Positions 17,321-40,611 are shown, counted from the first letter of the stretch. The stretch: 64,000 bases of DNA from an uncultured Neomegalonema sp. (GCA_937911325.1 CALDSD010000093.1:1-64000); one strand, 5' to 3'. Numbers and translations: made by a program. Notes: generated by a model from the sequence alone, not told the origin.

Positions 17321-19627
17321 TCAGGCGGACCGCTCGATCCCCGCAAGCGCCGCGACGTTCAAAAGTCCCCGCGCCGTCACCGAGGGCGTTACAATGTAGG
17401 CGCAATCTTCAAACCCCATCAGGATCGGGCCGACCTGCAAGCCGCCGGCGAGGGTTTTGAGCGCGTTCTTTGTCGCGCTGGCGGCGTCCGCCGACGGCAT
17501 GATCAGCAGATTCGCCGGACCGTGCAGCCGCGACTCGGGGAACAGGCGCGCACGAACGTCAGGGGCCACTGCCGCATCGACATGCATTTCGCCGTCAAAC
17601 TCAAAGTCGGCCCCGCTGGTCTCAAGCAGCTTCGCCGCCAAACGCATCTTCAGCGCCGCCGGCGTCTGCAGCTCGCCGAAGTTCGAGTGACTGATCAGCG
17701 CCGCCTTCGGCTCGATGCCAAACCCGCGTATATTGGCTGCGGCCGCCTTTGAGATCTCGACGATCTGATCCGCTGACGGATCGTGGTGCACGTGACTGTC
17801 CGCGATGAAGATCGGCCCCTCATCGAGGATGAGTATCGACAATGCGCCCACCGCGCGGCGCAGACCAGCCTCTCCCAGAACGGCTTCGATGTAGCGCAGA
17901 TGCCAACCGTACTGCCCAAAGGCGCCGCAGATCATCGCGTCCGCTTCCTTGCGGTGAACCATCACCGCCGCGATCGCGGTCGAGTTGGTCCGGATGATCG
18001 CGCGGGCGAGATCCGGGCTGACGCCATCGCGCGCCAAAAGCTCGTGATAGGTCTTCCAGTAATCGGGGTAGCGCGGATCGTCTTCGGGGTTGCAGACCTC
18101 GAAATCCGTCTCCGGTCGGATCTTCAGCCCAAGCTGTTGGCAACGCCGCTCGATCACGCGCGGACGACCGATTAGAACCGGCGCATCGGCGCCTTCTTCA
18201 AGGATCGCATTGGCCGCCTGCAGCACACGACTGTCTTCTCCCTCGGCAAAGACGATGCGGCGGGTCGACTGACGCGCCTGTTCGAAGATCGGCTTCATCA
18301 AGAAGCCCGAGCGGTAGACGAAGCGGTTCAAACGATCGCGGTAAGCGGCGACGTCGTCGAGCGGGCGCGCGGCGACCCCGCTTTTCATCGCGGCGTTCGC
18401 CACGGCGCAGGATACCTGCGACAGCAGACGCGGATCGAACGGCTTGGGGATCAGATAGTCCCTGCCAAAGACCAACCGTTCGCCCGAATAGGCCCGCGCC
18501 GCCTCCGCCGAGACCGGCTCACGCGCGAGCTCCGCCAGCGCCTCGACACAGGCGATCTGCATGGCGTCGTTGATCTGCGTGGCCCCGACATCCAGAGCGC
18601 CCCGAAAGATGAACGGGAAGCACAGCACGTTGTTGACCTGGTTGGGATAGTCCGAACGGCCGGTGGCGATGATCGCATCGGGGCGCGCAGCCGCCGCCTC
18701 TTCCGGCGAGATCTCCGGGTTCGGGTTGGCGAGCGCCAGAACCACCGGGTTCTCGGCCATCCGCTTGAGCATGTCGACCTTGAGCACGCCCGCGCCCGAG
18801 AGACCCAGGAACAGATCCGCGCCGTCGATCACCTGATCCAGCGTCCGCAGATCCGTCGCCTGCGCGTACTCGGCCTTTTGCGGCGTCATCTCGTCCTGGC
18901 GGCCTTGATAGACCAGCCCAGCGATATCGCAGAGCCAGACATTCTCGCGCTTGACCCCAAGCTTGAGCAGCATGTTCAGGCACGCAATGCCCGCCGCCCC
19001 GCCGCCGGTCGAGACGACCTTGATGTCCTCGAAACTTTTGCCTGCGACGTGCAGCGCGTTCTTCGCTGCTGCGGCCACCACGATCGCCGTCCCGTGCTGA
19101 TCGTCATGGAAGACGGGGATCTTCATTGTCTTCTGGCAGAGCTGTTCGACCTCGAAACAGTCCGGCGCCTTGATGTCCTCCAGGTTCACCGCGCCGAATG
19201 TCGGCTCGAGCGCGCGGACGATCTCGGCCAGCCGCGCCGGATCGCTCTCATCCACCTCGATGTCGAAACAGTCGATATTGGCGAACTTCTTAAAGAGGAC
19301 CGCCTTGCCCTCCATGATCGGTTTCGAGGCGAGCCCCCCGATGTTGCCCAGACCCAGCGCCGCCGAGCCGTTGGAGATCACCGCGACAAGATTGGCTTTG
19401 GCGGTGTAGCGCGCCGCGAGGGCGGGATTGTCTTTGATCTCGAGGCACGCCTCGGCGACGCCTGGGCTGTAGGCGAGCGCGAGGTCACGTTGGTTCGAGA
19501 GCGCCTTGGTGGCGCGGATCTCAAGCTTACCGGGGCGGGGATGCTCGTGGTAATCGAGGGCGCGCTGGCGGAACAGTTCCGCGTCGGACTTCTCCTGCGC
19601 GCCGCTTTCAATTGGATTGTCCGGCAT
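17321..19627 (-). CDS. maeB: NADP-dependent malic enzyme (malic enzyme + phosphotransacetylase-like domain)
   Basis: About 768 aa with the MaeB two-domain architecture. ATG at 19627 (MPDNPIES) with a GGGAGA RBS. Confidence 0.9.
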   Translation of the reverse strand: MPDNPIESGAQEKSDAELFRQRALDYHEHPRPGKLEIRATKALSNQRDLALAYSPGVAEACLEIKDNPALAARYTAKANLVAVISNGSAALGLGNIGGLASKPIMEGKAVLFKKFANIDCFDIEVDESDPARLAEIVRALEPTFGAVNLEDIKAPDCFEVEQLCQKTMKIPVFHDDQHGTAIVVAAAAKNALHVAGKSFEDIKVVSTGGGAAGIACLNMLLKLGVKRENVWLCDIAGLVYQGRQDEMTPQKAEYAQATDLRTLDQVIDGADLFLGLSGAGVLKVDMLKRMAENPVVLALANPNPEISPEEAAAARPDAIIATGRSDYPNQVNNVLCFPFIFRGALDVGATQINDAMQIACVEALAELAREPVSAEAARAYSGERLVFGRDYLIPKPFDPRLLSQVSCAVANAAMKSGVAARPLDDVAAYRDRLNRFVYRSGFLMKPIFEQARQSTRRIVFAEGEDSRVLQAANAILEEGADAPVLIGRPRVIERRCQQLGLKIRPETDFEVCNPEDDPRYPDYWKTYHELLARDGVSPDLARAIIRTNSTAIAAVMVHRKEADAMICGAFGQYGWHLRYIEAVLGEAGLRRAVGALSILILDEGPIFIADSHVHHDPSADQIVEISKAAAANIRGFGIEPKAALISHSNFGELQTPAALKMRLAAKLLETSGADFEFDGEMHVDAAVAPDVRARLFPESRLHGPANLLIMPSADAASATKNALKTLAGGLQVGPILMGFEDCAYIVTPSVTARGLLNVAALAGIERSA

Positions 19628-25366: not shown

Positions 25367-25479
25367 TATGAGCAGCGGACTCTCGTTAAATCGGCTCAAC
25401 GCGATCATAGGCGCTTGACGGATCGGCATTCGCCTCGCGACCATCGCGCATTAGTTTTATTTCGTGAACAAGCGACGAG

Positions 25480-26139
25480 GTGAGGTCGGCGCTGTTGATA
25501 GACCCAGGACAAAGCGAGATCGAGCAACGGCTCGAGAGACTGGAGCGCGAGAAAGTCGTCGTTTTCGCGGTTCGGGAGGCGATGCGCGCCGCTCCGCTGC
25601 TCGCGATCGCGGGGCCCAAGAGTTTCGACCGTCTTGCGGAACCCAGTTTTCGTGCGATTCTCACCGCTTCGATCGCAGCCTTTGATCCGAAGGCGCGACC
25701 GTCGGCGCAGATCGCGTCGGACGAAGCCTTCGCCGCGGCCAGCCTGACCGACACCGCGCATTCAGCGGTTTACGCCGCGGCTCGCGCCGCAGGAGCCGCC
25801 GTCGCAAACCATGCCGCGGCGGCCGCCTACGCCGGTTACGCAGCGGCGTTTAGCTCCGCCCGAGCGGCAGCCGCGGAAACGACCTTGCTGCGCGAGGCGA
25901 TCCTCGACCTCGAACAGCTTGAGCGGGCGGTGGCTGCTGATCAGCTGCGCGCCACCCCGCTCTGGCCTTCCGGCACGCCGGTTGAATTCACAGGAGCCGT
26001 CGACCGGCTCGCGCAGACGGTTCGCCAAACCGGCGCAGCGTGCGCCCGTTGGGTCGACTGGTACGTGACCAAGATCTACGGCTGGCCCGAGCTTCTCCCG
26101 ATGGAGCGCGACTGGGCGCTCGCCGAGAACGTTCATTAG
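25480..26139 (+). CDS. hypothetical Ala-rich protein
   Basis: 219-aa ORF filling the gap between hrpB and the convergent regulator. No family recognised. Start uncertain (GTG at 25480 or TTG at 25495). Confidence 0.35.
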   Translation: MRSALLIDPGQSEIEQRLERLEREKVVVFAVREAMRAAPLLAIAGPKSFDRLAEPSFRAILTASIAAFDPKARPSAQIASDEAFAAASLTDTAHSAVYAAARAAGAAVANHAAAAAYAGYAAAFSSARAAAAETTLLREAILDLEQLERAVAADQLRATPLWPSGTPVEFTGAVDRLAQTVRQTGAACARWVDWYVTKIYGWPELLPMERDWALAENVH

Positions 26140-26143
26140 GTCC

Positions 26144-27124
26144 TCAACGCGCCCATGATCTTCGCAGCCGTTGTGGCGACGCGCCGAACTCCGCCTTGAA
26201 GGCGCGCGTGAAGGCGCTGGGGTCGCGGTATCCGGACCGAAGCGCGACTTCGGAAACGCCGAGATCGCTGTCGACGATCCATCGACGCGCCTGGAGAAGA
26301 CGAAGACGCCGATAGACCGTTCGCGGCGGCGCTCCCAAAGCGCTTGTGAACCTCCGCTCAAGCTCTCGAGACCGACACGCGGCGGCCTTGGCCAAAGCGG
26401 CGACGCTCAATGGCGTCTCCAGATTGGCGAGCATCTCGGCCAGCGCCGCCCGAACCTTTCGGTCTTTGGTCTTCGGCGCCAGGGAGTTCGGATCGCCGCT
26501 GCCGCCGCCCGGGTGGTCGCCCTGCATGAACAGGCTGGCGATCTCCAGTGTCAGGGCCGCGCCGTAGTCGCGCTCGATGAGTTGCGTCGCAAGCTCATAG
26601 GCTGTCGCGGCACCGCCCGCGCTCAGCCGATCGCCGTCGATCACCCAGCGTTCGCGGCGGGCGTCCACGTCGGGGAAGCGTTCGGCGAAGGCGTCGAACT
26701 CCTCGAAATGAATGGTTGCAGCCCGTCCCCCCAGCAAACCGGCTTCGGCGAGCAGCCAGCTTCCCGAATCCAATCCAGCCAGAACCCGGTAGCGCCGCGC
26801 AGCCGCCTGCAACGCGCGGAGACACTTGGGCGTGGCGAGGCTTCGAAAACCATAGCTCGGCATCACAAACAGCGCGTCGCCCCTGGGCGCCTCGGCCAAG
26901 GCGCATTCAGGCATCACCGGGAATCCGCTCGAAGACGAGACCGGCGCCCCGTCCAAGGTCAGGATGCGCCACGAATACGCCTTGCGGCCCAGAAAGGTGT
27001 TTGCCGCTCGAAACGGCTCAATCGCATTGGCCAGGCAGTGATTGGAGAAGCGCTCGAACAGCAGAACGCCAAAGCTGCGCGCTTGCTCGCCCGAGACATC
27101 ACCAGTTTTAGTCCAATCCGGCAT
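26144..27124 (-). CDS. GlxA-family (DJ-1/PfpI + AraC HTH) transcriptional regulator, CdhR-like
   Basis: N-terminal GATase1-like domain plus a C-terminal AraC-type HTH. Transcribed divergently from the BKACE/carnitine dehydrogenase genes. Start set at the ATG at 27124. Confidence 0.8.
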   Translation of the reverse strand: MPDWTKTGDVSGEQARSFGVLLFERFSNHCLANAIEPFRAANTFLGRKAYSWRILTLDGAPVSSSSGFPVMPECALAEAPRGDALFVMPSYGFRSLATPKCLRALQAAARRYRVLAGLDSGSWLLAEAGLLGGRAATIHFEEFDAFAERFPDVDARRERWVIDGDRLSAGGAATAYELATQLIERDYGAALTLEIASLFMQGDHPGGGSGDPNSLAPKTKDRKVRAALAEMLANLETPLSVAALAKAAACRSRELERRFTSALGAPPRTVYRRLRLLQARRWIVDSDLGVSEVALRSGYRDPSAFTRAFKAEFGASPQRLRRSWAR

Positions 27125-27221
27125 GATTTCGAGACAATTCGGCATGATGCTGAAAGTCAATCCCATAAACCTCTTAGGACAATACGCCGGCACTCAACGA
27201 ACGTTTCCGGGAGGATCTGCC

Positions 27222-28130
27222 ATGCCGTTGGCCATGAACCGCGAAGTCTTCATCACCTGCGCCGTCACCGGCTCTGGCGGAACCCAGGACCGCAGCCCCC
27301 ATGTGCCGCGCAGCCCGCAACAGATCGCAGACAGCGCAATTGACGCTGCGAAGGCTGGCGCGGCCATCGTGCATTGCCATGTGCGCGATCCGGAGACCGG
27401 CAAACCTGCGCGCGACGGCGCGCTCTACCGCGAGGTCACCGAGCGGATCCGCGACGCGGACGTGGATGTTGTGTTGAACCTCACCGCCGGGATGGGTGGC
27501 GATCTGGTTTTCGGGTCGCCCTCCGCGCCGTTGCCGCTCACCGAAGGCACGGACATGCTCAGCGCCGAGGAACGCGTCGCCCATGTCGCCGACTGCCGGC
27601 CGGAGATCTGCACGCTCGACTGCGGAACCATGAACTTCGCCGAAGCCGATTACGTCATGACCACCACGCCCGGCATGCTCCGCGCGATGGGGTCGATGAT
27701 GACCGAACTGGGCGTGAAGCCGGAAATCGAAGCGTTCGACACCGGCCATTTGTGGCTGGCGAAAGCCCTTGTCGACGAGGGCGTGCTGTCGAGCCCGGCG
27801 CTGGTGCAGCTTTGCATGGGCGTCCCCTGGGGCGCGCCGGACGACCTCAACACGTTCATGGCGATGGTCAACAACGTGCCGTCCGACTGGACCTGGTCGG
27901 CGTTTGCGCTTGGCCGACACCAGATGCCCTATGTCGCCGCCGCGGTTCTGGCGGGCGGCAACGTCCGCGTCGGCCTGGAGGACAACCTGTGGCTCGCCAA
28001 GGGCCAGCTGGCGACGAACGCGCAGCTGGTCGAGCGCGCGGTCACCATAATCGAGAACCTGGGCGCGACTGTCGTCGGGCCCGAGCAGGTCCGCGAGCGA
28101 CTGTCCCTCACCAAGCGGGCCCCGGCATGA
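27222..28130 (+). CDS. 3-keto-5-aminohexanoate cleavage enzyme family (BKACE/DUF849), dehydrocarnitine cleavage enzyme-like
   Basis: ATG at 27222 with a GGGAGGA RBS. VFITCAVTGSG... matches the BKACE N-terminus. The longer annotated ORF from 27042 would overlap the regulator. Confidence 0.85.
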   Translation: MPLAMNREVFITCAVTGSGGTQDRSPHVPRSPQQIADSAIDAAKAGAAIVHCHVRDPETGKPARDGALYREVTERIRDADVDVVLNLTAGMGGDLVFGSPSAPLPLTEGTDMLSAEERVAHVADCRPEICTLDCGTMNFAEADYVMTTTPGMLRAMGSMMTELGVKPEIEAFDTGHLWLAKALVDEGVLSSPALVQLCMGVPWGAPDDLNTFMAMVNNVPSDWTWSAFALGRHQMPYVAAAVLAGGNVRVGLEDNLWLAKGQLATNAQLVERAVTIIENLGATVVGPEQVRERLSLTKRAPA

Positions 28131-29581
28131 TCGAGGTTGAGAAAAAGACCCGAAGCGCGGCGATCATCGGCGGCGGCGTCATTGGCGGCGCCTGGGCCGC
28201 GCGGTTCCTTTTGAACGGATGGAATGTCCGCCTTTTCGATCCGGACCCCGAAGCGGAACGGAAAATGAGCGAAGTCCTGGGCAACGCGCGCCGGTCGTTG
28301 CCGATGCTTTATGACCGGGCTTTGCCGCCCGAAGGCGCGCTGACGCATGTCGCCACGATCGCCGAGGCCGTTGCGGACGCCGCTTGGGTGCAGGAGAGCG
28401 TGCCGGAACGGCTGGAGATCAAGCACAAGGCGATCGCCGAGATCCAGGACGCGATCGACCCGGAAGCGGTGATCGGGTCGTCGACTTCGGGCTTCAAACC
28501 CTCCGAGCTGCAAGAAGGATCGACGGACCCTGGGCAGATCCTGGTCACACATCCGTTCAACCCTGTGTATCTGCTGCCATTGGTCGAGGTCGTGCCCTCG
28601 CCCGCCACCGATCCGCGCGCGACAGCATGGGCGCGTTGGGTGCTCGGCAGCATCGGCATGCACCCGCTCGTGGTGCGCCAGGAGATCGACGCGCATATCG
28701 CCGACAGGTTCCTCGAGGCGGTCTGGCGCGAGGCGCTCTGGTTGATCAAAGACGGGGTCGCCACGACCGAAGAGATCGACGATGCGATCCGCTACGGCTT
28801 TGGTTTGCGCTGGGCGCAGATGGGCCTTTTCGAGACGTATCGCGTGGCCGGCGGCGAGGCTGGCATGCGGCACTTCATCGGCCAGTTCGGCCCCGCGCTG
28901 AAATGGCCCTGGACGAAGCTGATGGATGTTCCCGAGCTCACGGATGACCTTGTCGACGCGATCGCGGATCAGTCGGACGCGCAGTCCGGACATCTCTCGA
29001 TCCGCGAGCTGGAACGTCTGCGCGACGAGAACCTCGTGTCCATCCTCCGCGCGCTCAAGGGACGAGGCTCGGCGGCAGGCGCGTTGATTGCGAACCACGA
29101 GTCGACATTGCCGAAGGAGGCGTCGCCGGACGCCGAGCTGCTGCCCTCGATCGACCGCACCGTGCCGATCGACTGGACCGACTATAACGGCCACATGAAC
29201 GAAAGCCGGTTCGGCCAGGTGTTCTCGGATGCGGCCGACTATGTGATGGTCCATGTCGGCGCGGACGCCGATTACATCGCCCGCGGCCTGAGTTACTTCA
29301 CCGTCGACATCCGGATCCGCTTTCTGGCCGAGGCCAAGGCGGGCCAGCGGATCACCGTCAAAAGCCAAGTCCTTCAGGGCGAGGGCAAGAAGCTGCGCTT
29401 GTTCCATCGCATTCTTGACGCCGACGGCGCCGAGATGGCGACCGGCGAGCAGATGCTGATCCATGTCAGCCTGGAGCCGCGCCGCGCCTGTGATCCCGCG
29501 CCTGAAGTGCTGGCGAAAGTCGAGGCGCTGGCCTCGGCGCATGCGGCCCTGCCGAGACCTTCCGACAAGGAGCTGATGTGA
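28127..29581 (+). CDS. L-carnitine dehydrogenase fused to C-terminal hotdog thioesterase
   Basis: ATGA overlap with the BKACE stop. N-terminal 3-hydroxyacyl-CoA-dehydrogenase NAD fold (AAIIGGGVIGGAWAARF) and C-terminal 4HBT-like thioesterase (PIDWTDYNGHMNESRFGQVF). It is the C-terminal 484 aa of listed ORF 27374..29581. Confidence 0.85.
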   Translation: MIEVEKKTRSAAIIGGGVIGGAWAARFLLNGWNVRLFDPDPEAERKMSEVLGNARRSLPMLYDRALPPEGALTHVATIAEAVADAAWVQESVPERLEIKHKAIAEIQDAIDPEAVIGSSTSGFKPSELQEGSTDPGQILVTHPFNPVYLLPLVEVVPSPATDPRATAWARWVLGSIGMHPLVVRQEIDAHIADRFLEAVWREALWLIKDGVATTEEIDDAIRYGFGLRWAQMGLFETYRVAGGEAGMRHFIGQFGPALKWPWTKLMDVPELTDDLVDAIADQSDAQSGHLSIRELERLRDENLVSILRALKGRGSAAGALIANHESTLPKEASPDAELLPSIDRTVPIDWTDYNGHMNESRFGQVFSDAADYVMVHVGADADYIARGLSYFTVDIRIRFLAEAKAGQRITVKSQVLQGEGKKLRLFHRILDADGAEMATGEQMLIHVSLEPRRACDPAPEVLAKVEALASAHAALPRPSDKELM

Positions 29582-30741
29582 TGCAATTCGGACTGACCGA
29601 AGAGCAGGAGATGATCGTCTCGACCGTGCGCAGTTTCGTCGAGACAGAGATCTACCCGCACGAAGCGGACGTCGAGCGCACCGGCGAAGTGCCGCCCGAG
29701 CTGGCCGAGGCGATCAAGGCCAAGACGATCGAGTTGGGCTTTTACGCGTGCAACTTCCCGGAAAGCATCGGCGGCGCGGGGCTTTCGCACCTAGACTTTG
29801 CTCTGGTGGAGCGGGAGCTCGGCCGTGGCTCGATGGCGCTCACGCATTTCTTTGGCCGACCACAGAACATCCTGATGGCCTGCGAAGGCGAGCAGATCGA
29901 GCGCTACCTGCTGCCCGCTGTCCGCGGCGAGCGCATGGATGCGCTGGCGATGACGGAACCGGACGCCGGTTCGGACGTGCGGGGCATGAAATGCGCTGCG
30001 CGACGCGACGGCGGCGACTGGGTCGTCAACGGCTCCAAGCATTTCATCTCGGGAGCCGAGCACGCCGACTTTGTGATCGTGTTCATCGCCACCGGCGAAG
30101 AGGACACGCCCAAAGGTCCGAAAAAGAAGATCACCACCTTCCTGGTCGATCGCGGCACGCCCGGCTTCACGATCCGCGAGGGATATCGCTCCGTCAGCCA
30201 TCGCGGCTACAAGAACATGATCCTCGAGTTCGACGACTGCCGCCTGCCTGACGCCCAGGTTCTGGGCCCGGTCGACGGCGGCTTCGCCGTGATGAACGAA
30301 TGGCTCTACGCCACGCGCATCACTGTGGCGACGATGTCGGTCGGCCGCGCGCGGCGCTGCTTTGACATGGGGCTCGCCTACGCCGCCGAACGCAAGCAGT
30401 TCGGGCAGCAGATCGGGAAGTTCCAGGGGGTCAGCTTTCAGCTGGCGGACATGATCACGGAGATCGACGCGGCGGACTGGCTGACGCTCGCCGCGGCCTG
30501 GCGGCTCGATCAGGGACTGCCGGCGAACCGGGAGATCGCCAGCGCCAAGCTCTACGCCTCGGAGATGCTGGCGCGCGTCACCGACGCGACGCTGCAGATC
30601 TACGGCGGCATGGGACTGATGGACGACTTCCCGATCGAACGCTTCTGGCGCGATGCGCGGGTCGAGCGGATCTGGGACGGCACCTCCGAGATCCAACGCC
30701 ACATCATCAGCCGCGATCTTCTGCGGCCATTGGGGGCCTGA
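29578..30741 (+). CDS. acyl-CoA dehydrogenase family protein
   Basis: 387 aa with ACAD N, middle and C domains. Start overlaps the upstream stop. Confidence 0.85.
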   Translation: MMQFGLTEEQEMIVSTVRSFVETEIYPHEADVERTGEVPPELAEAIKAKTIELGFYACNFPESIGGAGLSHLDFALVERELGRGSMALTHFFGRPQNILMACEGEQIERYLLPAVRGERMDALAMTEPDAGSDVRGMKCAARRDGGDWVVNGSKHFISGAEHADFVIVFIATGEEDTPKGPKKKITTFLVDRGTPGFTIREGYRSVSHRGYKNMILEFDDCRLPDAQVLGPVDGGFAVMNEWLYATRITVATMSVGRARRCFDMGLAYAAERKQFGQQIGKFQGVSFQLADMITEIDAADWLTLAAAWRLDQGLPANREIASAKLYASEMLARVTDATLQIYGGMGLMDDFPIERFWRDARVERIWDGTSEIQRHIISRDLLRPLGA

Positions 30742-30746
30742 CCTAG

Positions 30747-32825
30747 GTGGCGCCCGCGAACCGCGACCTTACTCGACTGCTGTCTCCGCGTTCGATCGCA
30801 TTCATTGGCGGGCGCGACGCGGCGGAGGCCATCCGGGTCTGCCGCCGCTTTGGCTACGAGGGTGAGATCTGGCCGGTTAGCGCCTCGCGAACGGAGCTGG
30901 CCGGGGTCGCCGCGTTCAAGGACATCGCGTCACTGCCCGGCGTTCCGGACGCCGCGTTTGTCGGAGTGAACCGCGAAGCCAGTATCGACGTGATCGCACA
31001 GCTCCGCGGGTTGGGCGCCGGCGGAGCAATCGCCTATGCGTCGGGCTTCTCGGAATCCATCAGCGAGATCGACGGCGGCGCAGATCTGGAGGCGCGGCTG
31101 ATCGCGGCCGCCGGGGACATGCCGCTGCTGGGACCCAATTGCTACGGTTTCATCAACGCCGGCGTCGGCGCGAGCATCTGGCCGTCAGAGCACGGCGTCG
31201 CCCGCGCTGAGCGAGGCGTCGCGCTGATCAGCCAAAGCACCAATATCGCGATCTCGCTGACGATGCAGCGTCGCGGCCTCCCGATCGCCTTTGTCGGCAC
31301 GGTCGGCAACCAGGCGCAGACAGGACTTTCGAGCCTTGCGCGGGCGGCGTTGGCTTTGCCGACGGTGACCGCATTGGGTCTGCATGTCGAAGCGATCGAC
31401 GACGCGGCGGGCTTTGAGGCCTTGGCGTCGCTGGCGCGCGAGCTGGGCAAGCCGATTGCGCTGACGCAGACCGGTCGGACCGAGGCCGCGCAGAACGCAA
31501 CGCTGTCTCATACGGCGTCGCTGGCGGGTTCGCATGCGGCGTCCGACGCGTTCTACCGGCGGCTCGGCGTCGCACGTCTCGATACGCTGACGCAGCTCGT
31601 CGAAACGCTGAAGCTGCTTCACGTTCACGGACCCTTGCCGGGCGGCAGGATCGCGTCGATGTGCTGTTCCGGCGGCGAGACCGCATTGCTCGCGGATGCG
31701 ATCGACGGCCGCAAGGTGGTCTTCCCGCCCCTGAGCGACACGCACCGTGTTCGGGTGAAAGACACCCTGAACGACATGGTGCGCGTCCTGAATCCGCTCG
31801 ACTATCACACCTTCATCTGGGGGAATGAGGCCGCCCTGACCGAAACCTTTTCGGCGATGATGGGCGGCGGCGGACCGAGCGCGTTCGACATCGGGTTGCT
31901 GACCTTAGATTGGGTGCGGACGGATCGTTGCTCGGACGCTGACTGGTTGCCCACGGTCGCCGCCTTGCGAGCCGCCGCAAACCGATCGGGGTTGAAGGCC
32001 GGCACGCTCTCAACTTTGCCAGACAATATGCCTGAACCGATCGCGGAAAGGCTGATCACAGAGGGTCTGGTTCCCCTCTGCGGGGTCGAGGACGGGTTGA
32101 GCGCCGTCGAAGCCGCCGCATTCATCGGCGGCGCCTGGGCCAGGCCGGCGCCAGCGGTCTTGACGCCTGCGCCGAGAACGGATCGCACGACGCGGCTGCT
32201 GGACGAAGCGGCGGCGAAGGCCGAGTTGGCCGGCTCTGGCGTCCCGACGCCCAAAGGGCGCGCCGTCGAGGAAAACGCCGTCCGAAAGACAGCCGAAGAG
32301 ATCGGGGGAGCCGTTGCGGTGAAATGGCTCGGAACCGCGCACAAGACTGATCTTGGCGCCGTTCAGCTTGGTCTGTTCCCGGAAGAGGCCGCCGAAGCGG
32401 CGCAGGAAATGACGGACCGACTGGGGCCATCGAAGTTCCTGGTCGAGGAGATGGCCTCCAAGCCCGTCGCAGAGTTGATCGTCGGCGCAAAGCGCGACGC
32501 GCCTTACGGCGTGTCGCTCACCTTGGGCGCCGGGGGCGTGCTGACGGAGTTGCTTCGGGACACCGTGACGTTGCTTTTACCTGCGACGCGCGAGGAGATC
32601 CGAGACGCCCTCCTTTCCTTGCGGTCCGCGCCGCTGCTGAAGGGATATCGCGGTCAAGAAGGAGCCGACATAGACCTCGCGGTCGACGCAATCGAAAACC
32701 TTGCTCGCTACGCGATCGCTCGCGCCGATCGGCTGCTGGAAGTTGAAGTAAACCCATTGATGGTGTCCGCAACCGGCGCAACCGCCGTGGATGCGCTGAT
32801 CCGATTGGAGGTCGAAGATGACTGA
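30747..32825 (+). CDS. acetate--CoA ligase family protein, ADP-forming (fused CoA-binding + ATP-grasp domains)
   Basis: 692 aa with an N-terminal CoA-binding Rossmann domain and a C-terminal ATP-grasp domain. GTG start. Confidence 0.8.
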   Translation: MAPANRDLTRLLSPRSIAFIGGRDAAEAIRVCRRFGYEGEIWPVSASRTELAGVAAFKDIASLPGVPDAAFVGVNREASIDVIAQLRGLGAGGAIAYASGFSESISEIDGGADLEARLIAAAGDMPLLGPNCYGFINAGVGASIWPSEHGVARAERGVALISQSTNIAISLTMQRRGLPIAFVGTVGNQAQTGLSSLARAALALPTVTALGLHVEAIDDAAGFEALASLARELGKPIALTQTGRTEAAQNATLSHTASLAGSHAASDAFYRRLGVARLDTLTQLVETLKLLHVHGPLPGGRIASMCCSGGETALLADAIDGRKVVFPPLSDTHRVRVKDTLNDMVRVLNPLDYHTFIWGNEAALTETFSAMMGGGGPSAFDIGLLTLDWVRTDRCSDADWLPTVAALRAAANRSGLKAGTLSTLPDNMPEPIAERLITEGLVPLCGVEDGLSAVEAAAFIGGAWARPAPAVLTPAPRTDRTTRLLDEAAAKAELAGSGVPTPKGRAVEENAVRKTAEEIGGAVAVKWLGTAHKTDLGAVQLGLFPEEAAEAAQEMTDRLGPSKFLVEEMASKPVAELIVGAKRDAPYGVSLTLGAGGVLTELLRDTVTLLLPATREEIRDALLSLRSAPLLKGYRGQEGADIDLAVDAIENLARYAIARADRLLEVEVNPLMVSATGATAVDALIRLEVEDD

Positions 32826-33603
32826 GTCTCCGCTGAAACTTCGCCGCGACGGCGCCGTTCTGGAAGTCGTGCTCGAGCGCGGCAAGGCCAACGCCATCGA
32901 CGCGCCGACCTCGCGCGCGATGAGCCGCGTCTTCGCCGAGTTCCGCGACGACCCTGAGCTACGGGTCGCCATCATCACCGGCGGCGGCGAGAAGTTCTTC
33001 TGCCCGGGCTGGGACCTTAAAGCCGCAGCCGACGGCGAAGGCCCGGTGTCGGATTACGGCGAGGGCGGTTTCGGCGGTTTGCAAGAGCTGCCGAACCTCA
33101 ACAAACCGGTGATCTCGGCCGTCAACGGCATCGCCTTCGGCGGCGGGTTTGAGCTGGCGTTGTCCGCCGACATCGTCATCGCCGCCGAGCACGCCACCTT
33201 TGCGCTGCCGGAGATCCGTTCGGGCACGTTGGCCGACGCCGCGACCCTGAAGCTGCCAAAGCGCATCCCCTATCACATCGCGATGGAGATGCGCTTCACA
33301 GGCCGCGTGCGGACCGCCGAGGAAGGCGCGCGTTGGGGCTTTGTGAACCGGACCGTCCCAGCGGACCAGCTGATGGAGGAGGCGCGCACCCTCGCCAGCG
33401 AACTTGCATCGGGCCCGCCCCTCGTGTTCGCAGCGATCAAAGAGGTCGTGCGCGAGGCCGAGGTCATGGGCTTTCAGCAGGCGCTCGACCGGGTCAACCG
33501 CCAGCAATTCGCAACGGTAAAGACGCTCTATAACTCAGAAGACCAGCTCGAAGGGGCGCGAGCATTCGCTGAAAAACGCGACCCAGAGTGGAAGGGCCGC
33601 TAG
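32818..33603 (+). CDS. enoyl-CoA hydratase/isomerase (crotonase) family, CaiD-like
   Basis: 261 aa with crotonase fold motifs (ITGGGEKFFCPGWDL, AVNGIAFGGGFELAL). Confidence 0.85.
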   Translation: MTESPLKLRRDGAVLEVVLERGKANAIDAPTSRAMSRVFAEFRDDPELRVAIITGGGEKFFCPGWDLKAAADGEGPVSDYGEGGFGGLQELPNLNKPVISAVNGIAFGGGFELALSADIVIAAEHATFALPEIRSGTLADAATLKLPKRIPYHIAMEMRFTGRVRTAEEGARWGFVNRTVPADQLMEEARTLASELASGPPLVFAAIKEVVREAEVMGFQQALDRVNRQQFATVKTLYNSEDQLEGARAFAEKRDPEWKGR

Positions 33604-33665
33604 CATTCCAAAGCCGCTCACAGTAAAGCCCGGGGCGTGGCGGTTCCCCTTGAGTGGTGCTTGGA

Positions 33666-35327
33666 ATGGAAGCTGATTTCGTAATCGTCGGCTCTGGGTC
33701 GGCGGGCTCGGCGATGGCGGCGCGTCTCTCGGAGGATGCGGCTCACAGCGTTTTGGTGCTTGAGTACGGCGGAACGGATTGGGGCCCGCTGATCCAGATG
33801 CCCGGCGCGCTGAGCTATCCAATGAACATGAAGCGCTATGATTGGGGCTACGTCTCTGAACCGGAGCCGCATCTGGGCGGACGCCAGCTTGCTTGCCCGC
33901 GCGGAAAGGTGATCGGCGGCTCCTCCTCGATCAATGGCATGGTCTATGTGCGCGGACATGCGCGCGACTTTGATCACTGGTCGGAGAGCGGCGCAGATGG
34001 CTGGGCGTACGCGGATGTGCTTCCATACTTTCTTCGGATGGAGAACTGGAACGACCGCGGACACGGCGGCGACCCGGATTGGCGCGGCAAGGACGGACCT
34101 CTGCATGTGACGCGCGGCAAGCGTGACAATCCGCTCGTTCACGCCTTCGTCGAAGCGGGGAAACAGGCCGGTTTCGAACTGACCGCCGACTATAACGGCG
34201 AGAAGCAGGAAGGCTTCAGCCCGATGGAGCAGACGACGTATCGGGGCCAGCGCTGGTCGGCCGCGAACGCCTATCTCAAACCTGCGTTGAAGCGATCCAA
34301 CCTCGACCTGGTGAGATGTCTGGTCCGCAAGATCGTCATCGAAGACGGTCGCGCTGTCGGCGTCGAGGTCGAACGCGGCGGCGCCTTGGAGACAGTCCGC
34401 GCGCGCAAAGAGGTGATCATTGCGGCGTCGTCGATCAACTCTCCGAAACTGCTGATGCTTTCCGGCGTGGGTCCAGCCGCGCATCTGGCCGAGAATGGGA
34501 TCGACGTTGTCGCCGATCGGCCGGGCGTCGGCCAAAACCTGCAGGACCATCTGGAGCTTTACATCCAGCAGGCGAGTACACAGCCGATCACGCTCTACAA
34601 ATACTGGAACCTGCCGGGCAAAGCCTGGGTCGGCGCACAATGGTTGTTCACACGCTCTGGTCCCGGCGCATCGAACCAGTTCGAAAGCGCCGCGTTCCTG
34701 CGCTCGAAGCCCGGCGTCGAGTACCCGGACATCCAGTATCATTTCCTGCCCATCGCCGTCCGCTACGATGGTCAGGCGGCTGCCGAGGGGCATGGCTACC
34801 AGGCCCATGTCGGACCGATGCGGTCGCCCTCGCGCGGATCGGTGACCCTGCGCTCGGCCGACCCGAAAGACCCGCCGAAGATCTTGTTCAATTACATGAG
34901 CCACGAGGACGACTGGGCCGACTTCCGCCATTGCATCCGATTGACGCGGGAAATCTTCGGCCAGGCTGCGTTTGATCCCTATCGGGGCAAGGAGATCCAA
35001 CCCGGGGCGGATGTCCAGAGCGACGACGCGTTGAACGACTTCATCCGGGAGCACGTCGAGAGCGCCTATCATCCCTGCGGCACCTGCAAGATCGGACGCC
35101 GCGACGATGCGATGGCCGTCGTCGACCCAGAGTGTCGCGTGATCGGCGTCGACGCGCTTCGCGTGGCCGACAGCTCGATCTTTCCGCGGATCCCCAACGG
35201 CAACCTCAACGGGCCATCGATCATGGTTGGGGAAAAGGCGTCCGACCATATCCTCGGCCGCGATCCGCTGCCGCGATCGAACCGCGAGCCCTGGATCAAC
35301 CCGCGCTGGCGCGAGGCCGATCGCTAA
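33666..35327 (+). CDS. betA: choline dehydrogenase-like GMC oxidoreductase
   Basis: FAD-binding [12 protein letters not shown] and GMC signatures. Start at the ATG at 33666 (MEADF...). The betA assignment rests on family similarity. Confidence 0.75.
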
Positions 35328-35338
35328 GACCAAGACCC

Positions 35339-36442
35339 CTAGATTTCACTGACCTGGTGCGCGGCGGTCGCAAGCCATTCCGGGTTGATCTCGACGCCCC
35401 ATCCCGGCGCGTCCGGAATGGTCGCGCGCCCGTCCTCGATCCGAAACGGATCGCCGAGGAACAGGCCCTCTTGCCACGGGTAGTAGTCCGGGCCCTCGAT
35501 CGAAAACTCGAGATACTTGCCTGCGTTCGGGATGGCGCCGAGCAGATGCATCGTGCAGATCGTGACAAGCGAGAGGTTCGCGCAATGCGGCGTGCAGGGA
35601 AGGCCGGCCGTCGCCGCCATCTCCGCGACCTGCAGGATCCGGGACAGACCGCCCATATACATGACGTCAGGTTGAACGATATCGACCGCGCGCATGGCGA
35701 TCATCCGCTCCCAGGTCGCCAGATCCCAGTCCTGTTCGCCGCCGGTCACGTCGAGCGAGAGCGCGTCGCTCACCTGCTTGGTCTGCTCGAGTTTCCAATA
35801 GGGGCACGGCTCTTCAAAATGACCAATCCCTTCGGCCTCGAGAAGACGGCCGACCTCGATCGCGCGAGCCGGCGAGAAACCGCTATTGGCGTCGACGAGT
35901 TTGGAGACGCCGTCGCCAAGCGCGCGCGACACGGTCGGAACCACCGCCTCGGTGCGGCCCGGCCATTCGTCGACGTCTTGTCCGCATTCGGCCCCAACGC
36001 GCCACTTGAACGCGTCGAACCCTTTTGCGTCTCGCAGACGGACGAGCCGGTCAGCTTCATCTTCGGGCGTGACGTCACGTTTCATCGACGACGCGTAGGC
36101 GCGCAGCGGGCCGGCCTTTCCGCCGATCAGCTCTACCACCGGCTTGCCCTCGACCTTGCCGCGCAAGTCCCACATCGCCGTGTCGAGCCCCGCCAACGCG
36201 CGGCAACGATAGCTGCCGGGAAACTTGTGCTCACGCGCTTCGACCAACTCCACCAGCGGCAAAATCTCGAACGCGTCCGCCCCTAGCGCCCAAGGCGCCA
36301 CCTGTCGGTGGAAGATCGTCGCCGTGATGTCGGCGTTGTAGGTCGACGTCTGACCCCAGCCGACCTCGCCGGCGTCGGTGGTCAAACGAACGAAACAGAC
36401 GAATTCGTTGGAAAAGGTCTCGAGTTTGGCGATGCGGCTCAT
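35339..36442 (-). CDS. mandelate racemase/muconate lactonizing enzyme (enolase superfamily) protein
   Basis: 367 aa with an MR/MLE N-terminal capping domain and a barrel carrying the metal ligands. Confidence 0.85.
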   Translation of the reverse strand: MSRIAKLETFSNEFVCFVRLTTDAGEVGWGQTSTYNADITATIFHRQVAPWALGADAFEILPLVELVEAREHKFPGSYRCRALAGLDTAMWDLRGKVEGKPVVELIGGKAGPLRAYASSMKRDVTPEDEADRLVRLRDAKGFDAFKWRVGAECGQDVDEWPGRTEAVVPTVSRALGDGVSKLVDANSGFSPARAIEVGRLLEAEGIGHFEEPCPYWKLEQTKQVSDALSLDVTGGEQDWDLATWERMIAMRAVDIVQPDVMYMGGLSRILQVAEMAATAGLPCTPHCANLSLVTICTMHLLGAIPNAGKYLEFSIEGPDYYPWQEGLFLGDPFRIEDGRATIPDAPGWGVEINPEWLATAAHQVSEI

Positions 36443-36455
36443 GGCGTACCGGCGA

Positions 36456-38060
36456 TCAGTTGGCGAGGATCTGGTCAGCAGCCTTATACGCCACCATCAT
36501 CGCCGGCGCATTGGTGTTGGCCGAGGTGATGTTCGGGAAGATCGACGCGTCCACCACGCGCAGCCCCTCGACGCCGTAGACCCGCAGCTGTGGATCGACA
36601 ACGCCGCCATCCTCTTGCGGAGCCATCCGGCAAGTGCCGCAGGGGTGATAGACAGAGGCCGACCGCGCTCGGAAATCGGAGACGATCTCATCGTCGGTCG
36701 CGTCGGTCGGATCAAACGGCGGTTCGACCGCGATCAAGGCGCGCATCGCTTCAGTCTCTTGCAAGCGACCAATCAATCGCGCGCCAGCGACCACTTCCTC
36801 GATGTCCTTGTTGGTGTCGAGATAATTCGGTCGAATGCGCGGCGCAGCGTCGGGATCCGGACTGCTGAGGTCGACCCGTCCCTGGCTCGTGGGTCGGCAC
36901 GAGTTGAAGCCAATGATGAAGCCCGGCCACGGATCGGGTTTGAAGAGCTCGCGTTTGTTCACGAGATCCGTCGAGTAACTCACCGGGTTGAAGTAGAGTT
37001 GCGTATCCGGGCGCGGCAGATCCGGGTCGCTGCGAACCATGCCGCCGAATTGATTGACGCCTATGCTGAGCGGGCCGGTTTGATTCAAGACGAAGCGGAT
37101 CCCCGCCGCGATAAGACCGGTCCAACTGCCCAACACGTTGTTGAGCGTCGGTTTGACGGCGCGATAGAAGTAGTTGACCCCAAGATGGTCCTGCATTGCG
37201 CCGCCGACGGCGTCGGCGCCGTGGACGACGTCGATGCCCATCGCGCTCAGGGATCGCCCCGGCCCCACGCCCGAGCGTTGCAGCAACATCGGCGATCCGA
37301 TCGCGCCGGCGGCGAGCAGAACCTCTCCATGCGCGCGCACCGCGACGGTCTCGCCACGGAACGTGTAGTCGACCCCGGCGGCGCGCCGGCCTTCAAAACG
37401 GACTTTCTGGACATAGGCGCCGCTGCGGACCTCCAAGTTGGGCCGCCGACGCGCGGGCCTCAAAAAGGCGACAGCGCTCGAGCAGCGCCATCCCCGCCGG
37501 GTTGTGACGTGGTAGCCGCCGACGCCTTCAGGTTCTGGACCGTTGACGTCCGGCGCATGGCGCAACCCGAGTTCAGACGCCGCGTCAAGAAAATGGCTTT
37601 TGACAGGATGATAATCGGCGTCGCGATTGCAGACCCACAGCGGTCCTTCGCCTTTTACGCCAGTGTCGGCCACTCGGCGCTCGAACCGCTCATAGACGGT
37701 TGAGACCTCATCCCATCCCCACCCTGGATTGCCGACGTCGCGCCAATCGTCATAGTCCACCGGCATGCCGTGCGAATAGACCATCGCGTTGATCGAGCTC
37801 GATCCGCCCAGAACCTTGCCGCGCGGGAAGTAGATCGGCCGATCGCCCAACGCTGGCTCCGGCTCGGAGTTGTATTTCCAATTGACCGAGGCGTCGAAAA
37901 ACGTCTTGCCGTAGCCGATCGGCATGTGGATCCAGAAGCTGCGATCCTCGCCCCCGGCTTCGAGCAGCAAGACACGATTGTGCGGATCGGCGCTCAACCG
38001 GTCCGCCAGAACGCATCCGGCGGACCCGCCGCCGACGATCACATAGTCGAATTCATCCAT
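36456..38060 (-). CDS. GMC family oxidoreductase
   Basis: DYVIVGGGSAGCVLADRLS FAD motif and GMC signatures. Start taken at the ATG at 38060 (MDEFDYVIV). Confidence 0.8.
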   Translation of the reverse strand: MDEFDYVIVGGGSAGCVLADRLSADPHNRVLLLEAGGEDRSFWIHMPIGYGKTFFDASVNWKYNSEPEPALGDRPIYFPRGKVLGGSSSINAMVYSHGMPVDYDDWRDVGNPGWGWDEVSTVYERFERRVADTGVKGEGPLWVCNRDADYHPVKSHFLDAASELGLRHAPDVNGPEPEGVGGYHVTTRRGWRCSSAVAFLRPARRRPNLEVRSGAYVQKVRFEGRRAAGVDYTFRGETVAVRAHGEVLLAAGAIGSPMLLQRSGVGPGRSLSAMGIDVVHGADAVGGAMQDHLGVNYFYRAVKPTLNNVLGSWTGLIAAGIRFVLNQTGPLSIGVNQFGGMVRSDPDLPRPDTQLYFNPVSYSTDLVNKRELFKPDPWPGFIIGFNSCRPTSQGRVDLSSPDPDAAPRIRPNYLDTNKDIEEVVAGARLIGRLQETEAMRALIAVEPPFDPTDATDDEIVSDFRARSASVYHPCGTCRMAPQEDGGVVDPQLRVYGVEGLRVVDASIFPNITSANTNAPAMMVAYKAADQILAN

Positions 38061-38192
38061 GAAACGGGCCCGCGCTCCGGTCTCCAAGCCCCACGAGAAT
38101 CCGAGCAGAGAGGATCGTCCGCAAATCCAGACGCGACAAAGCAGGTCGTTTTCGCGGCTTTCCGTAACGTCATCTTGGGCAGAGCGGGCCGA

Positions 38193-38954
38193 TCAGACTT
38201 TGGGGTCTGGGTTTTCCGTGTGGCCGTCGACCGCGATCACCTGGCCGGAAATCAGCCGCGCGGCGTCCGATCCCAAGAACACCGCCATCCCGGCGACGTC
38301 CGCGGCGGTCACCCAACTGCGCATCGAGGATCCGGCCGCGTAACCGCTATAAATTGCGTCCCGGGTCGTTCCCTTCGCCGCCGCTTCGCGCTCGAGAACG
38401 CCTTCCATCCGCGGCCCTTCGACGGCGCCCGGACAGATCGCGTTCGCGCGGACGCCATGCGGACCCAGTTCCATGGCCACGGTCTTCATCAAACCAATCA
38501 CGCCCCATTTCGCCGCGCAGTATGGCGCGCGGTTCGGGTACCCATAGAGCCCCGCGGTCGAGGATGTGAAAACAATGGAGCCGCCGCCTTGCCGTCGCAT
38601 CATCGGCGCGACGTGCTTCGCGGTCAGGAAGGCGCCCTCGAGGTTCACCGCGATACAGCGGCGCCAGTCCGCCAGATCGACCTGTTCGATGCCGGCCGTC
38701 GGCCCCGCGACTCCCGCGTTCGCGCACAAAACGTCGAGACCGCCCCAGTCTGCGGCGATCTTGTCGAACAGGCCGGCGACCTGCTTTTCGTCAGAGGCGT
38801 CCAGCTCGGAGCGCCGCCACGCGTCAGGCGCGGCCGCAAGCGCGGCCGCGTCAATGTCGGCGATCCAGACCTGCGCTCCGGCATCGGAAAACGCTTCCGC
38901 CATCGCCAGGCCGATACCATTGGCGCCGGCGGTGATCAGAACACGCTGCGTCAT
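38193..38954 (-). CDS. SDR family oxidoreductase
   Basis: TAGANGIG Rossmann motif and a YxxxK catalytic motif. Confidence 0.85.
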   Translation of the reverse strand: MTQRVLITAGANGIGLAMAEAFSDAGAQVWIADIDAAALAAAPDAWRRSELDASDEKQVAGLFDKIAADWGGLDVLCANAGVAGPTAGIEQVDLADWRRCIAVNLEGAFLTAKHVAPMMRRQGGGSIVFTSSTAGLYGYPNRAPYCAAKWGVIGLMKTVAMELGPHGVRANAICPGAVEGPRMEGVLEREAAAKGTTRDAIYSGYAAGSSMRSWVTAADVAGMAVFLGSDAARLISGQVIAVDGHTENPDPKV

Positions 38955-39039
38955 CGGTCGACCGAACGCCCGTCTTTCATCGCGACCATCCTGTCAACTT
39001 GCGTCCGCGTGAGGCCATAGCGACCTCACGCGGGTTTCC

Positions 39040-40611
39040 TCAGGCGAAGGACCAGCGCTCGAACCAGCGATGGCCATCCTTGTCCCAATGGGACGAGAAG
39101 CTGTCGCCGCCGGTGTCGATCTCACCATTTGTCGCAAAGACGTAGTTCGCGAACATCGGGATGATCGCGCCGCCGTCTTCGCCACAGATCGCCTGCATCT
39201 CGTAGTACATCGCGCGCCGCTTGGCGTCGTCGAGCTCGGCGCGAGCCGCGACAAGAAGTTCGTTGAAGCGCCCATTGTCCCAGAAGGTGTCGTTCCAGGC
39301 GGCCCCGGCGGCGTAGGCGGTGGTGAACATAGCGTCCTCCGTCGGGCGCCCGCCCCAGTACACTGCGCTGAACGGATGCTTCATCCAAACATCGGCCCAA
39401 TAGCCGTCGTTCGGCGCACGCTTGACCGTCAGATCAATTCCAGCGGCCGACGCCGAGTTCTGGAACAAGACGCCCGCGTCGACCGCGCCGGCGAACGCCG
39501 CGTCCGCGGCGGCAAGTTCAACGCTGAGGCTGTCGAGCCCAGCCTCCTTCAGATAGAACTTCGCCTTATCCGGATCGTACTCGGTCTGCGCCATCTCGTC
39601 GTTGAAGTAGCGCTGGCCGCGGCCGATCGGGTGGTCGTTGCCCAACGACCCGTAGCCGAACAGGATCTTGTCGACGAGTTCCTGGCGGTTGATCGCGTAT
39701 TTCAGCGCGCGCCGAACGTTGGCGTCGGTGAACGGCTCCTTGTTCGTCGACATCGCGAAGGTGTAGTGCTGGTTCCCCGCGACGGAGTGGATCTTGATCG
39801 CCGGGTTACGCGCCAGAAGGCCGACGGTTTTCAGATCGATCCGGTCGACCATGTTGACGTCGCCCGAGACGAGCGCCGTGGTCCGAGCGTTGGCGTCGAC
39901 GACCGACAGGACCTCGATCTCCTCGAAGAAGCCGCGGCCGGAGTCCCAGTCGTTTTCGTTTCGCGTGTAACGCGCTCTCACGCCGGCCTCGAACTCCTCG
40001 ATCTTGTAGGGCCCGCAGCCGACGCCCGACTGCCAGTCGATGCTGCCGTCGCCTGTCGCCGGCATGACCGGAAGGTGGTAGTCGGTGAAGGTCGTCGGGA
40101 AGTCGGCGCTGCCCGAGTTCAGCTCGACCACGACGACATCGCCGTCGGCAGTGACGTTCGTGACCGCGTCGAGAAGCGGCTTGGCGACGGAGGTCGAGTC
40201 CTCGCTGCGATGGAAATTGATCGAGGCGATCACGTCCTCGGCCGTCACGGTCTTCCCGTTGTGGAACTCCACGCCCGACCGGAGCTTGAAGCGCCATGTG
40301 GCCGCGTCCGGCGACGCTTCCCAGCTTTCAGCGAGCTGCGGCTCGAGCGAGCCGTCGCGTGCGATGCCCGTCAGAAAGCCGCCATAAGCGTAAGACTGTC
40401 CGTTGACGAAGTCGTTTCCCCACATGCCTGGGGTGAGGGTGTCGGGCGTCGAACCGTGTCCCCGCGCGGCGCGTAAGATGCCGCCGCGCGACTGAGCGGC
40501 GCGCGCGCCGCCGGGGAACAACGAGCTTCCAAAACCAGCCGCCGCCCCCGCAGCTGCGGTCGTTTGCAAAAAGGATCGACGGTTTAGACCGCGCTTAATC
40601 TTCTTTCCCAT
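39040..40611 (-). CDS. ABC transporter substrate-binding protein (family 5, peptide/opine type), Tat signal
   Basis: RRSFLQ twin-arginine motif and an SBP_bac_5 body. It is paralogous to the SBP at 46557..48158. GGAGG RBS. Confidence 0.85.
   Translation of the reverse strand: MGKKIKRGLNRRSFLQTTAAAGAAAGFGSSLFPGGARAAQSRGGILRAARGHGSTPDTLTPGMWGNDFVNGQSYAYGGFLTGIARDGSLEPQLAESWEASPDAATWRFKLRSGVEFHNGKTVTAEDVIASINFHRSEDSTSVAKPLLDAVTNVTADGDVVVVELNSGSADFPTTFTDYHLPVMPATGDGSIDWQSGVGCGPYKIEEFEAGVRARYTRNENDWDSGRGFFEEIEVLSVVDANARTTALVSGDVNMVDRIDLKTVGLLARNPAIKIHSVAGNQHYTFAMSTNKEPFTDANVRRALKYAINRQELVDKILFGYGSLGNDHPIGRGQRYFNDEMAQTEYDPDKAKFYLKEAGLDSLSVELAAADAAFAGAVDAGVLFQNSASAAGIDLTVKRAPNDGYWADVWMKHPFSAVYWGGRPTEDAMFTTAYAAGAAWNDTFWDNGRFNELLVAARAELDDAKRRAMYYEMQAICGEDGGAIIPMFANYVFATNGEIDTGGDSFSSHWDKDGHRWFERWSFA

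Follow-up and report, generated by a model that had tools for sequence, protein, structure and literature searches.

What is the run of six genes at positions 26,144 to 33,603 of a 64,000-nucleotide stretch of DNA from an uncultured Neomegalonema sp. (GCA_937911325.1, CALDSD010000093.1:1-64000) for, and how much of it is new? The stretch as a whole is termed the window here. A regulator gene faces away from genes for a BKACE-family enzyme, a dehydrogenase fused to a hotdog thioesterase, an acyl-coenzyme A (acyl-CoA) dehydrogenase, a nucleoside diphosphate (NDP)-forming CoA ligase and a crotonase. The most probable reading, at roughly 0.87, is that these genes form the bco/cdh operon of alphaproteobacteria, through which gamma-butyrobetaine and L-carnitine would be used aerobically, both being converted to glycine betaine. 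As for novelty, a curated family and a characterised pathway with the same gene order are already known, and the copy in the window is an unremarkable orthologue. Because pathway, fused enzyme and gene order have all been described and curated before, the locus advances no open question. Judging by it, a Neomegalonema-like bacterium probably consumes L-carnitine and gamma-butyrobetaine and yields glycine betaine and acetoacetate, which is of use for correct annotation and for metabolic reconstruction of the source community. The domain content of the genes, the curated family of the fused enzyme, and the gene order with its conservation are direct observations.

The fused enzyme is a member of a curated carnitine dehydrogenase family, where membership in NCBIfam means a score at or above the curated cut-off of the model. 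It scores 728.5 bits against NF005716, “carnitine 3-dehydrogenase” (cut-off 592), over profile positions 4-485 of 495, and its domains follow in the order 3HCDH_N (residues 11-184), 3HCDH (191-257) and 4HBT_2 (346-464). An L-carnitine-dehydrogenase-like enzyme joined to a hotdog thioesterase, as proposed in an earlier, preliminary description of this DNA, is thus borne out. Against the short Pseudomonas-type model NF005471 (321 positions), the protein scores 333.7 bits over residues 7-312 with a cut-off of 414, making it a homologue and not a member. Placement among generic 3-hydroxyacyl-CoA dehydrogenases, which the preliminary description had named as the outcome that would tell against it, is not seen: every 3-hydroxyacyl/butyryl-CoA dehydrogenase model gives at most 225 bits, all under their cut-offs, compared to 728.5 bits on the carnitine model.

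Structure comparison points the same way for the dehydrogenase part, whose nearest solved relatives are the lambda-crystallins, which act on free hydroxy-acids and not on CoA esters. No carnitine dehydrogenase is found among the solved structures. His142 and Glu154 of the dehydrogenase module, within THPFNPVYLLPLVEVVP, are invariant across 16 homologues and align with the same residues of lambda-crystallin 3ado. The best solved relative of the thioesterase module is 2hlj, a stand-alone protein of 157 amino acids (71.8 bits), and the DYNGH motif of the module is conserved. By analogy, the fused protein would carry out both the NAD-dependent oxidation of L-carnitine and the hydrolysis of betainyl-CoA. 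In a passage of PMC12482172 that cites Bazire 2019, the Sinorhizobium meliloti protein SM2011_c01638 is described as oxidising carnitine to dehydrocarnitine and as turning betainyl-CoA into glycine betaine.

The fusion had been singled out as notable, on the ground that the two activities belong to separate proteins in Pseudomonas. The ground is correct, as the thioesterase, dehydrogenase and BKACE of Pseudomonas are three separate genes (PP_0301 to PP_0303; P. putida fitness preprint), but the fusion is not notable. Since the NF005716 match spans both modules, the family as curated already consists of fused proteins. Homologues were sought among 5.8 billion proteins, and what is said of them covers the 120 matches listed. 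All 120 share the three-domain architecture, with 66-77% identity apart from the identical sequence, and some are named “carnitine 3-dehydrogenase / betainyl-CoA thioesterase” by JGI. A 100% identical NCBI protein, from a Neomegalonema sp. metagenome-assembled genome (MAG), is named “carnitine 3-dehydrogenase”. In a survey of gene order with one genome per species, at least 597 loci with a relative of the fusion were found, and gene orders were read in the best 80; in all of these 80 the match runs through the thioesterase module. Relatives also occur on 217 plasmid or chromid records, mostly annotated as carnitine 3-dehydrogenase, with Rhizobium (143), Paracoccus (18), Leisingera (12), Agrobacterium (7) and Sinorhizobium (6) among the genera. 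The fusion is therefore real, yet it is a common and already curated architecture in alphaproteobacteria.

Two further records deserve mention. A contig labelled Nocardioides marinus (L078) carries a 61%-identical fused gene with an adjoining BKACE gene, for which horizontal transfer or contamination are possible. On a Bacillus cereus E33L plasmid (H97), the corresponding region carries separate annotations for L-carnitine dehydrogenase and for a thioesterase family protein.

All six genes named in the preliminary description were recovered, at the same coordinates, by the open reading frame (ORF) map and the domain scans (Table 1). The BKACE and fusion genes overlap by ATGA at 28127/28130, the fusion and acyl-CoA dehydrogenase genes overlap by GTGA or TGATG at 29578-29581, the acyl-CoA dehydrogenase and ligase genes are 5 nucleotides apart at 30741/30747, and the ligase and crotonase genes overlap by 8 nucleotides at 32818/32825. 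These overlapping or nearly abutting junctions, three overlaps and one short gap, fit the translational coupling that had been claimed, as far as layout goes. Several operon starts are preceded by good Shine-Dalgarno sequences. In the intergenic gaps of 25300-36600, scans returned neither a sigma-70-like promoter nor a terminator. A repeat search of 25300-35400 gave only chance-level GC-rich matches, and an Rfam scan of the window found no riboswitch or leader and only three tRNAs, all away from the operon.

The gene order is widely conserved. The gene immediately upstream of the fusion is BKACE in 74 of the 80 loci, and the BKACE and fusion genes form the core of the cluster. The acyl-CoA dehydrogenase, ligase and crotonase genes, termed the trio below, adjoin this core in 30 loci, in the order seen here in 23, upstream on the same strand in 3 and divergently in 4. 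The full order, from the regulator through BKACE, fusion, acyl-CoA dehydrogenase and ligase to crotonase, recurs in 23 loci, and because the same order is found in many species, the arrangement is far beyond chance. Loci with the trio span Rhodobacterales, Rhodospirillales, Hyphomicrobiales, Puniceispirillum, Hellea and two gammaproteobacterial MAGs.

Some of these loci have additional genes or end early. A short-chain dehydrogenase/reductase (SDR) gene stands between BKACE and the fused dehydrogenase in the Roseovarius-type loci L004 (9189-9953) and L005 (8619-9392), and L004 also has an alpha/beta-hydrolase gene (Abhydrolase_3, 12531-13430) between the acyl-CoA dehydrogenase and the ligase. 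As a guess, these may be accessory enzymes, for example a D-carnitine dehydrogenase or an acylcarnitine hydrolase; both genes are absent from the operon in the window. In seven further loci (L002, L009, L010, L018, L024, L026 and L031) the locus, and mostly the contig too, ends about 100-400 bp past the crotonase gene, which hints at a repeat or assembly-breaking element beside the operon.

The closest known counterpart is in Sinorhizobium, the genus in which the pathway was studied biochemically. The S. meliloti cluster for L-carnitine and gamma-butyrobetaine, reported by Bazire et al. 2019 (J Bacteriol 201:e00772-18), comprises bcoA/B, bcoC and bcoD together with the BKACE gene and the fused SM2011_c01638. 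S. meliloti itself is not among the best 80 loci, and a congeneric replicon from the plasmid collection, that of Sinorhizobium sp. K101 (L081), served as a proxy; the stretch of this record that holds the cluster carries no annotation. All six genes are present there, ordered and oriented as in the window, with identities of 35% for the regulator, 73% for BKACE, 50% for the fusion, 79% for the acyl-CoA dehydrogenase, 49% for the ligase and 69% for the crotonase. Shared features include the fused dehydrogenase-thioesterase, the NDP-forming type of ligase, an acyl-CoA dehydrogenase with aspartate at its catalytic position, and a divergent GlxA/AraC regulator. The two loci differ in that a betA equivalog follows the crotonase in the window. 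They also differ in that the K101 cluster is flanked on both sides by ATP-binding cassette (ABC) transporter genes, while the operon in the window has no adjoining transporter of that kind. The K101 flanks consist of an SBP_bac_8 system with an SDR gene upstream (1764-6724) and a family-5 binding-protein system downstream (15698-18565).

The remaining enzymes are less sharply placed by their sequences than the fusion. The BKACE protein matches PF05853 with 340.8 bits (Pfam gathering score 24.8) and lies under the cut-offs of all four named NCBIfam BKACE equivalogs (Kce, 240 versus 382); the library has no curated model for a dehydrocarnitine-cleaving BKACE. Its HxH and GLEDN motifs (VHCHVRD and VGLEDN) align to 3c6c and are identical in Sinorhizobium. 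In the Kce structure these motifs reportedly bind metal. The protein is 75-87% identical in the loci where it lies directly upstream of the fusion, and this adjacency to a carnitine dehydrogenase suggests that it is the dehydrocarnitine cleavage enzyme, which would turn dehydrocarnitine and acetyl-CoA into acetoacetate and betainyl-CoA. A BKACE reaction of this kind is summarised, from Bastard 2014, in the P. putida fitness preprint.

The acyl-CoA dehydrogenase is under all NCBIfam equivalog cut-offs (CaiA, NF002885, 180.3 bits versus 540). It has Asp366 (window 30676-30678, within RIWDGTSEIQRH) where the canonical catalytic glutamate of YEGT is expected, and its WDGTSEIQ aligns with YEGTNEIQ of 1ukw. 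Aspartate occupies this position in all 23 loci with an 81-92% identical enzyme and in Sinorhizobium, while a second subgroup (60-64% identical, 7 loci) has glutamate there. The exchange was considered as a novelty of this locus and rejected, since its occurrence in these 23 loci and Sinorhizobium makes it a family trait. No other product of the operon is as conserved as the aspartate-type enzyme: its identity across orders is about 90%, compared to about 70% for the fusion and 40-50% for the ligase. It is probably a BcoC-like gamma-butyrobetainyl-CoA dehydrogenase.

In NCBIfam the ligase has no matches beyond generic acetate or hydroxy-acid CoA ligases, and it is 31-50% identical among loci. 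It would be a BcoA/B-like gamma-butyrobetaine/crotonobetaine-CoA ligase; S. meliloti BcoAB has been used with ATP and CoA to make gamma-butyrobetainyl-CoA from gamma-butyrobetaine (Rajakovich et al., bioRxiv 10.1101/2021.01.25.428109). The crotonase, 66-75% identical in related loci, has the crotonobetainyl-CoA hydratase model NF002936 (CaiD) as its best NCBIfam match (329.1 bits versus 500, full length, 3-261 of 261), and is taken as a putative BcoD/CaiD-like crotonobetainyl-CoA hydratase. That the trio feeds gamma-butyrobetaine or crotonobetaine into carnitine through CoA esters, as had been proposed, is supported by the collinear Sinorhizobium cluster and by this reported BcoAB ligase activity.

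Taken together, these assignments would give the following route. Its substrates, its regulation and the assumption that the thioesterase is used twice are drawn from homology, gene context and the literature. The ligase would activate gamma-butyrobetaine, and probably crotonobetaine as well, to the CoA thioester. The acyl-CoA dehydrogenase would then oxidise gamma-butyrobetainyl-CoA to crotonobetainyl-CoA, which the crotonase would hydrate to L-carnitinyl-CoA. L-carnitine would be freed from this ester by the thioesterase module of the fusion and oxidised by the NAD-dependent dehydrogenase module to 3-dehydrocarnitine. BKACE would condense 3-dehydrocarnitine with acetyl-CoA, giving acetoacetate and betainyl-CoA. 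Finally, the same thioesterase module would hydrolyse betainyl-CoA to glycine betaine, leaving acetoacetate as the carbon product. Residues of catalytic type are kept in BKACE (HxH/GLEDN), the dehydrogenase (His142/Glu154) and the thioesterase (DYNGH).

Several points weigh against this route. BKACE, the acyl-CoA dehydrogenase, the ligase and the crotonase all fall below every named NCBIfam equivalog cut-off, and therefore their substrates rest on context. The trio is not beside the core in 50 of the 80 loci, several of which are truncated contigs. The neighbourhood scans covered about 40 ORFs of the window, among which there was no BCCT or OpuAC-type betaine transporter; the only transporters were family-5 binding-protein ABC systems. 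The match to an S. meliloti-type cluster is judged through the congeneric K101 locus as a stand-in. The putative double role of the thioesterase follows from a scheme reported for S. meliloti by Bazire et al. 2019, in which five enzymes carry out seven steps from gamma-butyrobetaine to glycine betaine; one thioesterase would then have to hydrolyse L-carnitinyl-CoA as well as betainyl-CoA.

The first two of these points also favour an alternative in which only BKACE and the fusion are as described and the trio acts on some other small acid, such as the acyl groups of acylcarnitines or another omega-substituted butyrate. None of these three enzymes reaches the CaiA or CaiD cut-offs, the matches of the ligase are generic, and its identity among loci is low. 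However, the trio genes are tightly overlapped with those of the core, and their linkage to it in 30 loci, under three arrangements, speaks for functional coupling. Moreover, they are collinear with the Sinorhizobium cluster, whose ligase is documented on gamma-butyrobetaine, and the best curated match of the crotonase is a crotonobetainyl-CoA hydratase. This alternative is quite unlikely.

A second alternative concerns the purpose of the cluster, which might mainly make L-carnitine or glycine betaine as osmoprotectants from imported gamma-butyrobetaine instead of supplying carbon and nitrogen. The betA gene directly downstream, for the conversion of choline to osmoprotectant glycine betaine, would agree with this, as would the lack of glycine-betaine demethylation genes among the ORFs scanned. 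Such genes may nevertheless sit beyond the 64-kb window, and acetoacetate, a carbon source, is among the products of the pathway. The enzymology is the same either way, so this alternative, which we consider very unlikely, concerns physiology and not mechanism. Finally, a generic operon for beta-oxidation of fatty acids or ketone bodies, with no link to quaternary amines, is close to negligible even though every Pfam domain present also occurs in beta-oxidation enzymes, given the carnitine-family score of the dehydrogenase, its free hydroxy-acid relatives, the BKACE in place of a thiolase, and a regulator of the GbdR/CdhR-type subfamily.

For the bco/cdh operon, control would come from this regulator, presumably a carnitine-responsive activator of the operon. 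It has the architecture of the CdhR/GbdR type, with an N-terminal DJ-1/PfpI domain and a C-terminal AraC helix-turn-helix, and is divergent from the operon. A family of GATase-1-like AraC regulators that includes GbdR and CdhR has been described (PMC5806209). The best NCBIfam match is GbdR, with 179.7 bits compared to a cut-off of 480, and the protein is not a GbdR equivalog. The label “CdhR-like” used before is therefore reasonable with regard to architecture and divergent position, while the curated match falls short. A homologous regulator is divergent beside BKACE in 48 of the 80 loci and stands beside the rest of the cluster in about eight more, and these homologues align from residue 1 of the start chosen here.

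The start codons of the regulator (27124) and BKACE (27222) are 98 bp apart, with 97 bp between them. Related loci mostly have gaps of 60-130 bp, and the nearest relatives gaps of 73-91 bp; the compact shared control region noted earlier is thus confirmed. It contains a GGAGG ribosome-binding site at 27210-27214 and three G[AT]CAAT hexamers on the same strand, at 27133-27138, 27156-27161 and 27178-27183, spaced by 23 and 22 bp. The window holds 44 such hexamers in all, and this is the only spot where three occur on one strand within 60 bp. Counted from the regulator start, hexamers at 8-9 and 31-32 are also present in the nearest relatives (L001, L002 and L017), and L022 and L003 keep just the one at 31-32. 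The CdhR of Pseudomonas aeruginosa binds direct repeats of GGTCGC with a 15-bp spacer (PMC5806209), compared to G[AT]CAAT with 16-17 bp spacers here. The similar periodicity suggests a putative tandem-repeat operator that is analogous to that of CdhR and different in sequence. Acting from this control region, the regulator would presumably activate the operon in the presence of carnitine or a related betaine.

Other known systems share parts of the scheme. Strain HK4 of Lonza, a close relative of Rhizobium meliloti, makes L-carnitine from gamma-butyrobetaine by reactions analogous to those of fatty-acid breakdown, and its carnitine-dehydrogenase mutant no longer degrades carnitine (PMC2131755). 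The fitness preprint of Price et al. has nothing on this cluster. In P. aeruginosa and P. putida, caiX-cdhCAB-hocS with a divergent cdhR has the same chemistry from carnitine through dehydrocarnitine and betainyl-CoA to glycine betaine. It shares with the window a BKACE gene beside the dehydrogenase gene and a divergent GATase-1-like AraC regulator, which in Pseudomonas binds intergenic direct repeats. It differs in holding caiX (a binding protein) and hocS, and in having no acyl-CoA dehydrogenase, ligase and crotonase arm. The caiTABCDE operon of Escherichia coli, for the anaerobic conversion of carnitine to gamma-butyrobetaine, uses CoA-thioester chemistry on the same carbon skeleton, and the crotonase and acyl-CoA dehydrogenase of the window match its CaiD and CaiA models below cut-off (329 versus 500 and 180 versus 540). 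However, E. coli has an AMP-forming CaiC ligase and a CaiB CoA-transferase (PMC2131755), runs in the reductive direction, and has neither a carnitine dehydrogenase nor a BKACE.

Table 1. Features of the operon and its downstream neighbours (positions in the window; aa, amino acids).
Feature	Position	Strand	Basis or remark
Regulator, GATase-1-like/AraC (GlxA-type), 326 aa	26144..27124	-	DJ-1_PfpI + HTH_18 + HTH_AraC
Shared control region, 97 bp	27125..27221	.	sequence
BKACE-family enzyme, 302 aa	27222..28130	+	PF05853, 340.8 bits
Fused L-carnitine 3-dehydrogenase / betainyl-CoA thioesterase (predicted activities), 484 aa	28127..29581	+	NF005716, 728.5 bits
Dehydrogenase module of fusion, NAD-dependent, residues 11-257	28157..28897	+	3HCDH_N + 3HCDH
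Hotdog thioesterase module of fusion, residues 346-464	29162..29518	+	4HBT_2
Acyl-CoA dehydrogenase, 386 aa	29581..30741 (start 29578 or 29581)	+	three ACAD domains
NDP-forming acyl-CoA synthetase, 692 aa	30747..32825	+	CoA_binding_2, Succ_CoA_lig, ATP-grasp_5
Crotonase, 261 aa	32818..33603	+	ECH_1, 209 bits
Choline dehydrogenase BetA equivalog	33666..35327	+	TIGR01810, 852.7 bits; outside conserved unit
Enolase-superfamily MR/MLE enzyme	35339..36442	-	cluster facing betA
Second glucose-methanol-choline (GMC) oxidoreductase	36456..38087	-	below BetA cut-off
SDR	38193..38954	-	cluster facing betA
Twin-arginine translocation (TAT)-signal family-5 solute-binding protein	39040..40611	-	cluster facing betA

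The betA equivalog (TIGR01810 cut-off 732.1) starts 62 nucleotides past the crotonase gene on the same strand, with no betB or betI adjoining it; the preliminary description, which ended at 33603, did not include this seventh gene. As glycine betaine is the end point of both routes, the position of betA is metabolically sensible, and the gene is possibly co-transcribed with the operon. No terminator-like site was found in the spacer by the terminator scan. The spacer (33604-33665) can fold into a long hairpin in which the betA start codon is included; its energy of -32.2 kcal/mol (z = -1.9) is not clearly exceptional. The idea that betA belongs to the conserved unit was rejected, since what follows the crotonase is different in all 16 comparable loci, and the juxtaposition is therefore local to this genome. 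Among the best 80 loci, a betA homologue lies near the cluster only in L057, and there it is upstream.

Some further suggestions are speculative and, taken jointly, rather doubtful. The betA gene may have been recruited onto the bco/cdh transcript, with one carnitine-responsive regulator driving three routes, from gamma-butyrobetaine, carnitine and choline, to glycine betaine; or the substrate of the GMC enzyme may be some alcohol related to the pathway in place of choline. It may also be that the conserved aspartate adapts the unusually conserved acyl-CoA dehydrogenase to a cationic trimethylammonium substrate.

Elsewhere in the window, a minus-strand cluster (35339-40611) converges on betA. 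An IS1595-family transposase gene is found at 8302-9225 on the plus strand, in a stretch of lower GC content (0.55 at 8001-10000), and a second dip, to 0.51 at 52001-54000, lies beside a tRNA gene at 53456-53528. The transposase and the low-GC stretches may be mobile or island boundaries unrelated to the operon.

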